Positions 30,001 through 36,000 of a stretch of 44,978 nt of DNA are shown piece after piece. A program made the position numbers. The stretch is from a virus (lineage: Duplodnaviria > Heunggongvirae > Uroviricota > Caudoviricetes): the IMG/VR virus record IMGVR_UViG_2703718817_000009, positions 1 through 44,978 of that record, one strand, 5' to 3'. Each line of letters starts with the position of its first letter. Within the stretch, counting starts at the first letter, position 1.

Positions 30001-33000
30001 ATATTTTTACAGTATTAAACATGGATCATTAAGCCTGTCTCTGATAGGCTCATTCTGCTTTTGCGCAAAGCAGTGGGCCTGAGGTTTGCTTGTGATCCGG
30101 ACGCATGAGCAGATGGCTGGTGAGTGCCCCTAACACCCACCAGCCGCCCATTTACCACAAATAAAAAAGCCTTCAGGACTGAAGGCGTCTGTAACAACCG
30201 AACTGATAGTCTGCCAGGCCCGCCATAACAAGCTGGGTCAGTATTAGCTGGCAGCGTTCGCGTGAAAGGTACGTATTCTGTGCAATCTCCCCGACAGTCG
30301 CCGGTTCGGTGACGCTTAATTCATTAAACACCACTCTGGCGGTTTCTGTCATATCCTGCTGTTTCAGCATGTCTTTTTCCCTTTTCCGGTTAACGTGACA
30401 CACCAATAACTCTTGTCGAAAAAGCCAGCAAGCTGAAAGAGCGGTATTAATAACCACCAGCGAATTTATTGCACTACTGTATATTGCGGGCACAAAAAAA
30501 CCACCCTACGGTGGCTTCCTTGTGCGAAAAAAACTTGCGTTTCGCCTCGCGATACAGCTTTGCGAAGCTTATACGGATTGAAGCAGTTTATTGATCAGTT
30601 TGCAACATTTTTTTCTCTGTAACAAAAGCCATGCGCATGGGGGCATGTAACATAAATTCAGATATCCCCAACCATTGATCAATTCGGCGTCTGCACGTAA
30701 CCAACGTCCACTCAGGATGATCTGCATTTAACCTTTCGGCCATTTTCAGTTTGCTCATTCCCCGTCCTTCGTACCTTTGCCGGAGAACATTGATTAGCCC
30801 GGGATATTCCCCAAGCACCTCACTGATAACGCGATCAATAATCAACGCCTCTGTGTCTGTACAATGTGACAACCAGCTCTTCTGCTTCCCTCTGGTCATA
30901 TCCCGAAAAAATGCCTCAAGTTCCGGTTTTTCCAGCCCGGATTTCTTCATTCTGCGTAAAACCTCATTAACTGCTGTTTTCGTCAGCTTTTTCGAAACCA
31001 GTAACCGGTTAAACATATTTCCGGATTTACCCCCACCGATATACGACCACCGCCCCCACATCCGTAATTTCCCCTGGATCCAGACTGCTTCCAGCGTGTT
31101 CAGGCGTAAATGTTCGCCGCTTTTGCCTGTAATTTCCGGATATATCATATTTACGCTCACTCACTCTCAATTTTGTAAATCTTCACACCCAGCCGTCCAC
31201 CAGATACTGGCTGACCACGTACAATATTGATTTCATCAAACTGCTCGTCATCAATGAGCACTCCCGCATGCGTCAGCGCATCCAGCGGCGCTTTCAGAAT
31301 GTTGTCCAGGTCGCGACGACGCTTATCCGGTGGCTCTGCAATCACCTTTATCGCCAGCCTTCCGGACAGGCTTAATTTCAGCCGCTGCTGGCGAACAATA
31401 AGCGCCACAGCCCGGCGATAACGCTTTCCCTCCTCCGAGATAAAATATGTGCTGCCACGGCGTCGCCAGTAAGTGTTCACCGTCGGCGGGTAAGGTAAAA
31501 CCAAATCTATGAGCATCAGTCACCTCTTTTACCCGAGCACGCCAGTCGCAAAGGCGTGATCAAGAAAACGAAAAATTAACTCAACCTGGGACCCGTACTT
31601 TTTCTCAAACTCCAGCGGGTCAGCATGAAGTTCGTTGTGGTGCTCCCGGCACAACGGTAGTGTGAAAATATCGTGGGATTTTGTCCCCATTCCGCCCAGC
31701 CCATGGCCAATCAGGTGATGCGGATCATCAGCTGGCTTTCCACAACATGCACACTGCTGCGTCTTAACCCAGCGGGTGTATTTTTCATTAACCCAGCGGC
31801 GACGTTTAGGCCGTTTCATGAAGGATTCCGGGGACTCCGGATCAACGGTAACGCTGACCACTGTTTTTTCCTGTGGCGTGGTTTGTGGCTGGTGGGGGTG
31901 AAGCGGTGGCTCTATGTTTTTTGTCCGCTGCTTCAGGATGCCGGTGGCGGTCTGCGCTCCCGGTATGATGTCGCTCTCACTGTATACGGAGCGGATTTTT
32001 TCCACCGGCAATCCCAGCGAACGACGCAATACAGACTCCGGAAGCGCATCAGCCACCTGATTGCAGACCGCCCACCAGGATAATTCAGCCAGCGATAATT
32101 CATGCTCCTGTGCGCCATTCATTGCGTGACGGATGACGTCAATCATCCAGGCGGCCAGATTCTGTTGAGCAAGTTGCTCCAGTGAATCAGATGTCTGCTC
32201 CCGCAGCTGGTTGTCGCAGTGCCAGCACAACACCATCGCGCCAGTACCGTAACGGTGAATGACGGTTTCGCTGTGATGATAATCGCCATGTGGCCACTGG
32301 CAGGATTTCACGTGACGTAATAACCAGTCAGACAGTGCGCCAGCACCACCTGCAGCACGGATCACCCGCTCATCACTGAAAAATGGCAGTAATGATTTAT
32401 CCTCCACCAGCGGCTGGCGAACAGTGGGAACCGCTCCGGATGGCAGCGCCCGCATGTTTTTCGGTTCCGCCTCCACCAGCACCCTGCCGCAATGAAAAAC
32501 CGGCAGTGATTCGCGACCGGGCTTAAGGATCACCAAGCCAAGTTCCGGCACCAGAACAGGTCGAAGTAATACCCGCACGTTACCTCCAGATACGTTGCTG
32601 GAATGTGCGGGACGGACGCGGTGGACGTTCGGAATAAGGGAGCCTGACAGAGATTATCCAGTGACGATAATCGAGGCTGAGGGCTTTCTTAACCTCGTAT
32701 CCGCGCCTGCGGTAACACTGAATCAGCCATTCGGCCTGTTCTCCAGTGCATGGGGGATGCTGGTACCAGTCGGTTTTAAATACGTGCGAACGCCGCCCTG
32801 GCCTACTGGCAAGGGCGGCAGAATTGTGCAATCTGGTATCGTGCGCCATCGGGATCTCCGGTGGCACGGTGTTTCTCAGCGACGGTTCAAGTCAGCCTGA
32901 TTTTATAGCTGCTTCTGAATATCATCAACAGGTAATCCTGCCAACTCTCTTACCTCAGAAAGAAGAGAAAGGCTTACAACAACCTCATTACTTCGCATAA

Positions 33001-36000
33001 CAAAACCACATTGAAAAGAACCATCACTGTTTCTGTAAACAACAACCGGGCGCGTGCTCTCATAAAACCCCGGGATCAAACTGGCTGGGATTTTCACAAC
33101 ACCTCCTGACGTAAAGGAAATGAAATGCATTATCGCTTCTCTCGGACTATAACCATGAAAAGAGACGCATTTCACTCAGTAAATCTGAGGATTTTATGCG
33201 CAAGAACAATGACTTTTTCTGTCTGCCGTTTATACAATCTGAATTGCGTCTGTTTTTTGAACACCGATAAATCAGCAAACATTCTCAAATAAAGATTGCC
33301 TCCATAGTCCACATGGTGTAACACTATGTGTTATATAAAATGCAGAGGCAGGTATGCGAATTTTCAAAAACGCCTGGTTTGAACGTTTCGCCCGAAAGCA
33401 TCGGATTTCCGATAAATCGCTGCGCGAAATCGTGGAGCAGGCCGATAAGGGGATCATATCCGCAAATTTGGGTAGTGGTGTCATTAAACAAAGATTAGCC
33501 CGAAGTGGTGGCGAAAAATCAGGCGGTTACCGGACAATAATTTTTTACCTCGTTGCAGAAAAAGCCTTTTTCATCTACGCATACGCAAAGAATGAACGAG
33601 AGAATATCACCGCTATAGAGGAAAATGCTTTTCGAAAAGCCGCTCCCCATGTCCTCAATCTTACTGATGAACAGCTGGCACAATTGATTCAACAAGGCCA
33701 GTTCACGGAGGTACCCAATGAGTAAAAATTACCGCAGTGATGCACTTGCATCTGTACATGAAATGATGGAGTCACTCCATGATATCGGTGCAATCACAAA
33801 ACAAACTATGCGCGAATTCGATGAAACTTGTCTTCAGCCTGCGCCGGTAATGTCTCCAGAAAGGATCCGTGCACTGCGAGAACGAGAGCATCTGTCTCAA
33901 CCTGTTTTTGCCAGATACCTCAACGTCAGTAAAAACCTGATATCAGACTGGGAACGAGGAGTGAAACGCCCGGGAGGTGCAGCTCTTCGGCTTCTTTCAG
34001 TTGTCGAGAAAAACGGGATCCAGGTAATATCCTGATATTCTAATACAACAAAACCCGCCGAAGCAGGTTAAGTGCGGGTGCGTTGAGGATGCCTGACACA
34101 TCAGAGGTGGCGAGGGATTTCTCCCTCGCCAGGTCTCTTACTCCTCAGGTTCGTAAGCTGTGAAGACAGCGACCTCCGTCTGGCCGGTTCGGATTCGTAC
34201 CTCGCAGAGGTCTTTCCTCGTTACCAGTGCCGTCACTATGACGGTTAAACAGATGACAATCAGGGCGATTAACATCGCCTTTTGCTGCTTCATAGCCTGC
34301 TTCTCCTTGCCTTTCGGCACGTAAGAGGCTAACCTACATGTGCAAAGCATGAAATTGGCCTCAGATTAATGTTAAGCGTCCTGCAAGACGCGTAATGTTA
34401 ACTGGGGCTTTTCTCTGTCTGCCTTACGGCGGCATGCCCGAGGCAGACAGCCTCAAGCACCCGCAGCAATTCTACTTAACTCTTCTTTCCCCGCAAATCA
34501 TTTTATCCCCGATGGTAATGTTCTCCCGATATGGGAATTCCCATATCAAGGTTAACTCAATCGGTTAAAGCTCCATTAATTTTCCGGCCAGTTCATCTCG
34601 TGGCATTACCAGCCATCCGCGCGATTTAAGCAAAGCCAGGGCTTCTTCAACCGTCACCAGCTGGCCAGGCGCATAACTTCGGATGAAGGCGGTTTTATCG
34701 TCACGGATCGCCAGGTGAAAATCGATATTCATTTTTCCCATAGTCCGCTCTTTCTCGTACTGGTTGAAGTAACTGTCTTCGAGTTTTTCGAATACTTCCC
34801 ACGCCTGATCGGTTTCGAGCATTTTTGCATGACGGGCTGCTCCGCGTTCTGTCCAGAGGATGAGGGAACGAACGTTACGGGCGATTTTCACAGACCCACT
34901 TAAAGATGGTCTGTGCTTCAATTCACGTAACTCTTCACCTTCGATCTTAAAAAAGTGTTTTCCAATCTGAAAGCGCCCTACATTCCTTGCAAAGTTGTTT
35001 TGAATATTCTTAACGTCTGCACCATAAAGATGCGCCAACAACTCAGTGGTAATTACAGGGATTTGGTTGTAAGTAATAGCAACAAGAGTTTCAACAGAGA
35101 TTTGAGTAGTCATAACGACACCCTAGGGTGGTTTCTAAACTATCACCACCGTCAGGTCTCAATCGTCGGGTGGTGAGACGTACAGGGTTGAGACTACCGG
35201 GAAACCAACCGGCGAGCTTTTCAGCTCCCCTATACGCCCCACCATAATTCAGATGTGCGCGTGCATACGACAATAAAAAACACGCTCGCGGCGTGTGTCT
35301 GTCGCGGTTTCTATCCGGGGTCTCAATCCCGACGGTCAACTCGACCGTGCGGTGAATATAGCCCCGGATTAGTAATTACGTCAACCCCAGCGGCAAATCG
35401 AATAAACCACCAGCGCTACCGCCATTGCAACTCCTGCCGTTACGAATGCCTCAGGCCAGGTCATCGTAAACTATCCTCAGCGCCAATCAGTCCGTTTCGC
35501 TTCAGGCAGTCCATCGCTTTATACGGTAATTTGGCTGACAGGCGAAAATCACCCTGCAGCATCAGGCTTATTCCCTTATCCCGGGCTTTCGCTCTGACCG
35601 CTGCCTCGCTACGACCAATCAGACTGCCGATACTTTCGACAGTCATCGTTCCCGCGCACAGCCGGAGTATCAGAATTTCAGCCCGGCACCACGTCTTCCA
35701 CCCACTCACCGCTGCTGTTCTCTGGTGGCGGTAATATCCCGGAGAATATCCCGGCACTTGTTCAGCTCCCGCAGCGCGGCGCAGACTCGCTCCCACTTCT
35801 GAACCTGACCTTTTGCCCGGCGCAGCTCGCGGTTAGCCACATGCAGCGATGGTAAAATCAGCCCATCCGGATGCTTTCTGGTGAACGACGGCTGTGACTG
35901 CACTGTGACCGCCACACTTTCCGTTTTTATTTCTTCCTGTGTTTCCGCTTCCCGGACTGGTAACGCAACACATGCTGGCTGAGGAAAGGCTTTACCATCG

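Follow-up and report, generated by a model that had tools for sequence, protein, structure and literature searches.

Adjacent hok/mok/sok and HigBA-2-type toxin-antitoxin modules in the nin region of a lambdoid Shiga-toxin prophage

How many toxin-antitoxin (TA) modules are carried by the nin region of the virus record IMGVR_UViG_2703718817_000009 (Caudoviricetes), and which of the small open reading frames (ORFs) found there belong to them? A preliminary description of this DNA had listed a classical hok/mok, a HigB-like toxin paired with a helix-turn-helix (HTH) antitoxin, and a possible AbrB-like gene. We analyzed the record over its full length of 44,978 nucleotides (nt), referred to below as the window, which is a Shiga-toxin-converting lambdoid prophage. 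In our reading, to which we give a probability of about 85%, two independent and conventional TA modules lie side by side on opposite strands, a type I hok/mok/sok locus and a type II HigBA-2-type cassette, and the small ORFs next to them stand outside both. All sequence features listed in that description were located at or close to the positions given, with statistics well beyond chance. What the sequence establishes directly is the family to which each product belongs, the anatomy of the genes, the conservation of catalytic residues, the predicted structure of the RNA and the borders of the cassette. The modules themselves are already known, since RefSeq annotates all of these features, which occur in 169 to 215 complete Escherichia coli genomes, and they belong to well-studied families.

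A complete type I hok/mok/sok locus

The segment at 34048-34462 on the minus strand is a complete type I hok/mok/sok locus. Its hok coding sequence (34138-34293, minus strand) specifies a product of 51 amino acids (aa) that matches PF01848 with an E value of 2.7e-23 over profile positions 1-42 of 42, and phrog_251, "MokW-like host killing," with an E value of 2.8e-33; the homologous gene is annotated hokD in RefSeq. The mok ORF of 70 aa (34138-34350, minus strand) is an in-frame N-terminal extension of hok with a common stop codon. Upstream, the hok leader (34288-34462, minus strand) was recovered by the Rfam "sok" model RF01794 with 117 bits, compared to a gathering score of 59, over model positions 1-157 of 157. 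The classical hok/mok of the preliminary description was thus borne out, and the sok region is present too.

The predicted full-length hok mRNA occupies 34048-34462 (minus strand), with the RF01794 match beginning at 34462. It carries a 5′ tac element, GGGUGCUUGAGG (34462-34451), a 3′ fbi element, CCUCAACGCACCC (34088-34076), and a hairpin at 34069-34052, all on the minus strand, the last of these being a predicted terminator-like site. When this RNA was folded in silico, the 5′ GGGUGCUUGAGG was predicted to pair with the 3′ CCUCAACGCACCC, with a free energy of −181 kcal/mol and a z score of −8.7; the pairing in the model is the classical tac/fbi closure.

The locus was aligned with hokC and hokD of E. 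coli K-12 and with the corresponding locus of a related prophage (L008). The hok coding DNA differs from K-12 hokD by one synonymous change (ATT for ATC), so that K-12 hokD encodes the identical Hok peptide. On the plus strand, a putative Sok antisense RNA was placed at approximately 34342-34400, its ends taken by analogy with K-12 sokC; this segment is homologous to sokC and its promoter, overlaps the mok start codon, and has a predicted 3′ hairpin. A putative Sok promoter could be read from the sequence on the plus strand, with a −35 element, TTGCCT, at 34307-34312, a 17-nt spacer, and a −10 element, TAACCT, at 34330-34335. Relative to the Rfam consensus, the hok leader contains an insertion of about 16 nt (34372-34392) that forms a GCGUC...GACGC hairpin and is also found in L008; on the Sok strand, this hairpin could serve as the stem of a Sok terminator.

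Homology suggests how such a locus would act. Base pairing between the 5′ tac and the 3′ fbi element would keep the full-length hok mRNA closed; upon 3′ processing, the RNA would refold, making mok, and via mok also hok, translatable. A short-lived Sok antisense RNA would cover the mok start and block translation, and upon loss of Sok the 51-aa Hok peptide would enter the inner membrane, with the cell being killed or lysed. For a relative of this locus, hokW-sokW of the Stx2 prophage Sp5, which is a TA system of the hok-sok family, both Hok toxicity and Sok neutralization have been demonstrated, and the system speeds phage release after induction (PMC8621323).

A HigBA-2-type cassette on the opposite strand

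The second module lies on the plus strand and begins with its toxin gene (33354-33725), which encodes a 123-aa protein of the RelE/ParE superfamily. This protein matches PF06296 with 152.9 bits (cut-off, 27) over profile positions 1-120 of 120, and PF06296 was found in all 120 of the homologues listed from more than 1,400 clusters. V. cholerae HigB-2, which itself belongs to PF06296 (bioRxiv 10.1101/2025.01.28.635273), provided the best matches in the Protein Data Bank (PDB), with an E value of 1.2e-3 for the single sequence and 5.3e-5 for a profile of 26 sequences. An AlphaFold 2 (AF2) model with a predicted local distance difference test (pLDDT) score of 71 had HigB2 (5ja8_C) as its top Foldseek match in the PDB (probability, 0.97; E value, 0.026; TM score, 0.46-0.51), and the solved structures nearest to the toxin/antitoxin pair are 5JA8 and 5JAA. 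Mutagenesis has shown that R51, R64, Y82 and K84 of VcHigB2 matter (PMC5416850). These active-site residues align to R47, R60, Y77 and K79 of the toxin; in the family alignment, R47 and R60 show no variation and K79 almost none. By homology, the toxin would be a ribosome-dependent mRNA endonuclease that cleaves mRNA in the ribosomal A site. RefSeq names the gene "type II toxin-antitoxin system RelE/ParE family toxin."

The antitoxin gene follows at 33718-34035 (plus strand). Toxin comes first, and the two genes overlap by 8 nt (33718-33725; ATGAGTAA). The 105-aa product matches HTH_3 with an E value of 1e-7, and its best PDB match is HigA-2 (5JAA; E value, 6.7e-8), residues 45-99 aligning with residues 39-93; RefSeq calls it "helix-turn-helix domain-containing protein." It is built from an N-terminal segment of 44 residues and a C-terminal Xre-type HTH at 45-99. 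The 44 residues left over by the HTH match stand where HigA-2 keeps its toxin-neutralizing region; they are the probable neutralizing segment here, which would wrap around the toxin and inactivate it. Profile searches thus supported a HigB family (PF06296) and a HigA-like HTH protein, and the pair proposed in the preliminary description stands, overlap included, although it is described more precisely as HigB-2/HigA-2-type. Its orientation had to be corrected: the pair is not divergent from hok but convergent with it, and it is divergent only from the two small ORFs on its other side.

Upstream of the toxin gene, we found an imperfect palindrome of 19 nt, TGTAACAC-TAT-GTGTTATA, at 33317-33335 (plus strand), which overlaps a putative extended −10 element (TG-T-TATATA; 33329-33337, plus strand). 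The 19-mer is identical in a diverged variant of the cassette from an O104:H4 strain, whereas the two cassettes are 83% identical as a whole, with unrelated DNA upstream and diverged leaders; homology to this variant starts exactly at 33317. The palindrome is probably a HigA-2-like operator, with the C-terminal HTH of the antitoxin probably repressing the operon at this site over the −10 element. What we infer for the two modules is their toxicity and its neutralization, the function of the operator, where the Sok transcript starts and ends, and their role in biology.

We compared this region by blastn with six related prophage loci (L003-L008). Homology to all six ends at 34050 and restarts at approximately 33218-33225, which delimits a cassette of about 824 nt (33226-34049, plus strand) that represents an insertion or replacement relative to these syntenic prophages. 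In its place, the six carry about 180 nt of unrelated DNA, and the type II pair was found in none of them. Their gene order is otherwise hok, an ORF of 64-68 aa, an ORF of 92 aa (uncalled in L004) and DUF968, then RusA and/or a Q-type antiterminator; in L006-L008, an ORF6N gene precedes hok. No convincing flanking repeats were found at the cassette borders, and the junctions look like ordinary mosaic boundaries. Among 5,426 complete E. coli genomes, 215 contain the cassette, always on the chromosome, and the hosts sampled include O157, O145, O26, O104:H21 and O22:H8 strains; the full region was found in no sequenced phage record.

Two other arrangements were seen around hok. In the Qin prophage of K-12 (L010:4620-5373), relBE lies directly upstream of hokD, and in O104:H4 strain 2009EL-2071 (L012:4770-5818), a Doc-family toxin gene with a small upstream ORF lies between hokD and a remnant of HigBA-2. 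Because different type II modules stand beside hok in different prophages, the data suggest that the neighborhood of hok is a site of recurrent accretion of such modules.

These features raise the question of whether the HigBA-2-type cassette benefits the host as an anti-phage module, acting in superinfection exclusion by abortive infection, rather than serving addiction or prophage stability. Consistent with a role in exclusion, the cassette is self-contained, lies on the opposite strand with what is probably its own promoter, and occurs in some prophages but not in others with which they are otherwise syntenic; other TA modules occupy the same neighborhood elsewhere, as with relBE in Qin and the Doc toxin and small ORF in O104:H4, and toxins of the RelE/ParE superfamily have been discussed as defense toxins (PMC11980606; preprint, bioRxiv 10.1101/2025.01.28.635273). 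However, PADLOC defense models gave no match to the toxin, nor to Hok or to the Rem-like and 89-aa proteins encoded by the two small ORFs described below, and the antitoxin had only generic HTH matches. The toxin is, moreover, often inactivated while the antitoxin is kept, a pattern that fits the decay of an addiction module as well or better. We therefore regard an exclusion function as unlikely.

The decay is evident when copies of the pair are compared. The antitoxin is 100% identical at the protein level in L001 and L011 and 99% identical in the O104:H4 strain 2009EL-2071 (L012), in the latter despite a DNA divergence of about 8%. By contrast, the toxin gene of strain FORC_041 (L002:2455-2827) has a 1-nt insertion at the position equivalent to 33453 of the window, and that of the O104:H4 strain (L012:4001-4400), with a DNA identity of 70-80%, has several frameshifts and indels. 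In prophages of Shiga-toxin-producing E. coli, then, the toxin often decays while the antitoxin remains nearly invariant.

Several observations weigh against taking the pair in the window as a conventional, working module. Many sister copies have a frameshifted toxin, and the gene is annotated in two pieces in about 7 of the 23 near-identical copies sampled. The toxin of the window also has two private substitutions, G54E (codon 54, 33513-33515) and R66L (codon 66, 33549-33551), at positions that do not vary among the close E. coli relatives examined; in the family alignment of 26 sequences, G54 is more than 90% conserved and arginine is the majority residue at 66. E54 is an acidic residue in the basic β2-β3 loop of the toxin, a loop that has been linked to ribosome interaction in HigB-2 (PMC5416850). 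Because G54E and R66L alter conserved positions, the allele may be attenuated. To these points must be added that the match between the single toxin sequence and HigB-2 is marginal (E value, 1.2e-3) and the AF2 model moderately confident (pLDDT, 71), that a generic sigma-70 scan, which performed no better than on shuffled sequence, missed the promoters placed by homology, and that we found no paper in the literature characterizing this E. coli HigBA-2-type pair or cassette.

A module that is attenuated or dead in the window, with selection acting mainly on the antitoxin as an anti-addiction factor or regulator, would account for the private substitutions, in particular the acidic residue placed in the basic loop by G54E, for the split copies, including that caused by the 1-nt insertion in L002, and for the O104:H4 variant with its frameshifted toxin gene and nearly unchanged antitoxin. 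Nevertheless, the toxin ORF of the window is intact over its full length and retains the equivalents of all four catalytic residues, V. cholerae HigB-2 likewise has a leucine (L70) at the site corresponding to position 66, and the effect of a single loop substitution is unpredictable. We view this alternative as tentative and somewhat doubtful. Improbable, in our view, is the broader proposal that, in the early-right (nin) region of lambdoid prophages, the DNA flanking hok is a dedicated slot in which type II TA cassettes are swapped, the HigBA-2 cassette being an exclusion or abortive-infection module whose antitoxin is kept after toxin decay as an anti-addiction or regulatory factor. Two conventional modules beside each other remain our preferred account of this segment.

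Two small ORFs outside the TA modules

Between the cassette and the DUF968 gene, two small ORFs are present on the minus strand, as the preliminary description had noted (32580-32867 and 32903-33175, each read as the longest ORF), one of them with a VKIP motif; the TA role considered for them was not supported. The likely real start of the second ORF is at the VKIP motif, at 33097, giving a gene at 32903-33097 (minus strand) that starts with GTG after GGAGG and encodes a 64-aa protein matching phrog_31309 with an E value of 7e-48. Relatives keep the GGAGG-N4-GTG start unchanged, in L006 and L008 an in-frame stop codon rules out the longer reading, and in a broader alignment of 17 family members almost every sequence begins with M-x-I-P. 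The ratio of nonsynonymous to synonymous polymorphism (pN/pS) is about 0.24, which indicates that the gene is under purifying selection.

Several lines of comparison lead from this family to Rem. Its profile aligned with K-12 Rem (b1561) by hhalign with a probability of 97.2% and an E value of 4.7e-11 over 44 columns, the aligned core being GF[VI][LM]R-x-x-E-F-V-T-S-L...AG. K-12 Rem matches phrog_340 with an E value of 4.4e-21, and three members of the 64-aa family match it weakly. The position between hok and a ydfU-like DUF968 gene is the same in the window, in L003-L008 and for Rem in K-12 Qin. Judged from these sequence relationships, the 64-aa ORF encodes a Rem-family protein and not an AbrB/MazE antitoxin.

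The AbrB-like identity suggested earlier was pursued in several ways and had to be given up. The 64-, 75- and 90-aa versions of the protein and its homologues gave no AbrB, MazE or SpoVT match in Pfam or NCBIfam even at an E value of ≤10. Comparison of the family by hhalign with a hand-typed alignment of MazE, Kis, ChpBI, AbrB and SpoVT returned probabilities of 0.14-0.44%, and a profile search of PDB sequences with the family retrieved no AbrB or MazE chain. The AF2 model of the protein was too poor (pLDDT, 55; predicted TM score [pTM], 0.26) to say anything about its fold. Resemblance to the MazE loop is confined to a K/R-I-P-A motif, and because this motif is at the extreme N terminus, the first β-strand of the AbrB swapped-hairpin fold is missing.

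When the profile of the 64-aa family was searched in 1.84 billion representative proteins, the matches were about 15 small proteins, which are true relatives, and many large proteins of 286-3585 aa. The large proteins (P0250-P0287) were discarded as spurious motif matches because the four that were scanned proved to be DUF5122 β-propeller repeat proteins. The DUF5122 repeats were matched through a V-x-x-DG-x-x-GFV β-hairpin motif, and they also weakly match the Pfam "AbrB-like" family PF14250, which shows that a short β-hairpin motif can mimic AbrB similarity.

The neighboring gene encodes an 89-aa prophage hypothetical protein that matches phrog_1212 with an E value of 7.8e-36; its likely real extent is 32580-32849 (minus strand) rather than the longest-ORF reading of 32580-32867. 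Nearly all of its 141 homologue clusters are annotated as hypothetical, and no match to Pfam, NCBIfam or PADLOC, no toxin or antitoxin family and no similarity to K-12 Rem was found. Its stop codon (32580-32582) is located 1 nt before the GTG start (32578) of the HNH-containing DUF968 gene. Since this 1-nt spacing recurs identically in L006-L008, translation of the 89-aa gene is probably coupled to that of the ydfU-like DUF968 gene, and the arrangement suggests a shared function of the two.

Could the 64- and 89-aa ORFs nonetheless form a third, novel type II pair, with an AbrB/MazE-like antitoxin followed by an unrecognized toxin? They are small, adjacent, on the same strand and conserved together in relatives, and the local likeness of the K/R-I-P-A motif to the MazE loop points the same way. 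Yet the family comparisons and the missing β-strand described above speak against an AbrB/MazE antitoxin, the 64-aa protein belongs to the Rem family, the two genes are 53 nt apart, with the 89-aa gene probably coupled to DUF968 instead, and Rem of K-12 Qin occurs without an 89-aa partner. We consider such a pair highly improbable. Both ORFs are ordinary nin-region genes that are part of no TA module.

The prophage and its comparison with known systems

Whereas one suspected module was removed from the nin region, the prophage still has at least three toxin modules, because the second Hok-like locus reported in the tail region is real. It lies at 2685-2972 (minus strand), downstream of a gene for a 1155-aa tail protein (3024-6491), and so adds to hok/mok/sok and the HigBA-2-type pair. 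The 46-aa coding sequence (2685-2825, minus strand) matches PF01848 with an E value of 2.4e-11 and is named "Hok/Gef family protein" in RefSeq; the leader (2814-2972, minus strand) reaches 50.3 bits with RF01794, short of the gathering score of 59, and in the predicted fold the 5′ end is closed onto the 3′ end (z score, −8.5).

The Shiga-toxin-converting character of the prophage is seen in its gene content. A StxA-like RIP-family protein of 319 aa is encoded at 27622-28581 (minus strand), and the window also encodes a NanS-p-like esterase and contains 3 tRNAs. The genes of the early region comprise replication genes (P, DnaT-like), a YdaT-family gene and a CI-like repressor gene. On the minus strand, the replication genes are followed by DUF1627, an ORF6N anti-repressor gene (34565-35113), hok, the region of TA genes and small ORFs, DUF968 (ydfU-like), RusA and the DUF1133/Q-type antiterminator gene (30588-31160, minus strand); this layout identifies an early rightward operon on the minus strand.

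Several further features were recorded in this setting. Directly upstream of the ORF6N anti-repressor gene, two Rfam models score above threshold, C4 antisense RNA (35166-35249, minus strand; 70.5 bits) and the Hfq-binding small RNA (sRNA) IsrK (35275-35348, minus strand; 52.4 bits), resembling an immunity and antitermination module of the P1/P7-type c4-ant or Gifsy-type isrK-anrP kind. The StxA-like gene is followed, a few hundred bases further downstream, by a strong match to the sRNA STnc100 (27052-27266, minus strand; 155.7 bits). Upstream of the replication genes, at 37968-38519 (minus strand), is a gene for a 183-aa protein of the "YdaT toxin" family (PF06254; E value, 2.1e-5), and at the syntenic spot in L001 and L011, RefSeq has a "toxin YdaT family protein" right after the Cro/CI regulator. 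By name, this protein is one more nominal toxin in the prophage; its position is that of the cII-like slot in lambdoid phages.

What is gained by this analysis is modest and consists mainly of correct annotation: a supposed third TA system was removed and its gene moved to the Rem family, and the HigBA-2-type pair is now defined as a discrete cassette of about 0.8 kb with a probable operator. Should either the cassette or the hok locus act on prophage stability, on induction or on phage release, as is known for hokW-sokW in Sp5, the biology of Stx phages could be influenced.

Among known hok loci, mokC/hokC/sokC of K-12 has the same layout as the locus of the window, mokC and hokC likewise sharing a stop codon. 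K-12 sokC begins 8 nt inside mokC, and the putative Sok here similarly overlaps the mok start. K-12 hokD, in contrast, has lost its mok/sok leader because it lies behind relBE, whereas the leader is intact in the window. The 933W-like Stx2 converting phage I carries a hok locus about 91% identical in DNA; its place in 933W-like phages is beyond the late genes, while hok of the window is in the nin region.

The nearest known relative of the type II pair is HigB-2/HigA-2 of V. cholerae (VCA0468/0469), which has a toxin of the same PF06296 family, a toxin-first operon and overlapping genes, as well as an antitoxin of the same layout, in which a non-HTH segment at the N terminus precedes a C-terminal HTH. 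The two toxins are about 22% identical by structural alignment, that of the window being 13 residues longer and differing by the acidic E54 in the basic β2-β3 loop; the V. cholerae pair resides in the superintegron, whereas the present one is carried by a prophage.

Among the small ORFs, K-12 Rem of Qin has 83 aa and belongs to phrog_340, whereas the 64-aa protein of the window has an unrelated N-terminal half and falls in a separate PHROGs cluster, phrog_31309; the HigBA-2 cassette separates the 64-aa gene from hok in the window. Finally, relBE-hokD (relBEF) of Qin and the cluster of O104:H4 2009EL-2071 resemble the arrangement found here in that a type II TA system lies directly beside hok in the early-right region of a lambdoid prophage. 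There are differences in toxin family, in the side of hok that is occupied and in strand: relBE precedes hokD on the strand that both share, whereas the HigBA-2 pair of the window is downstream of hok and convergent with it.

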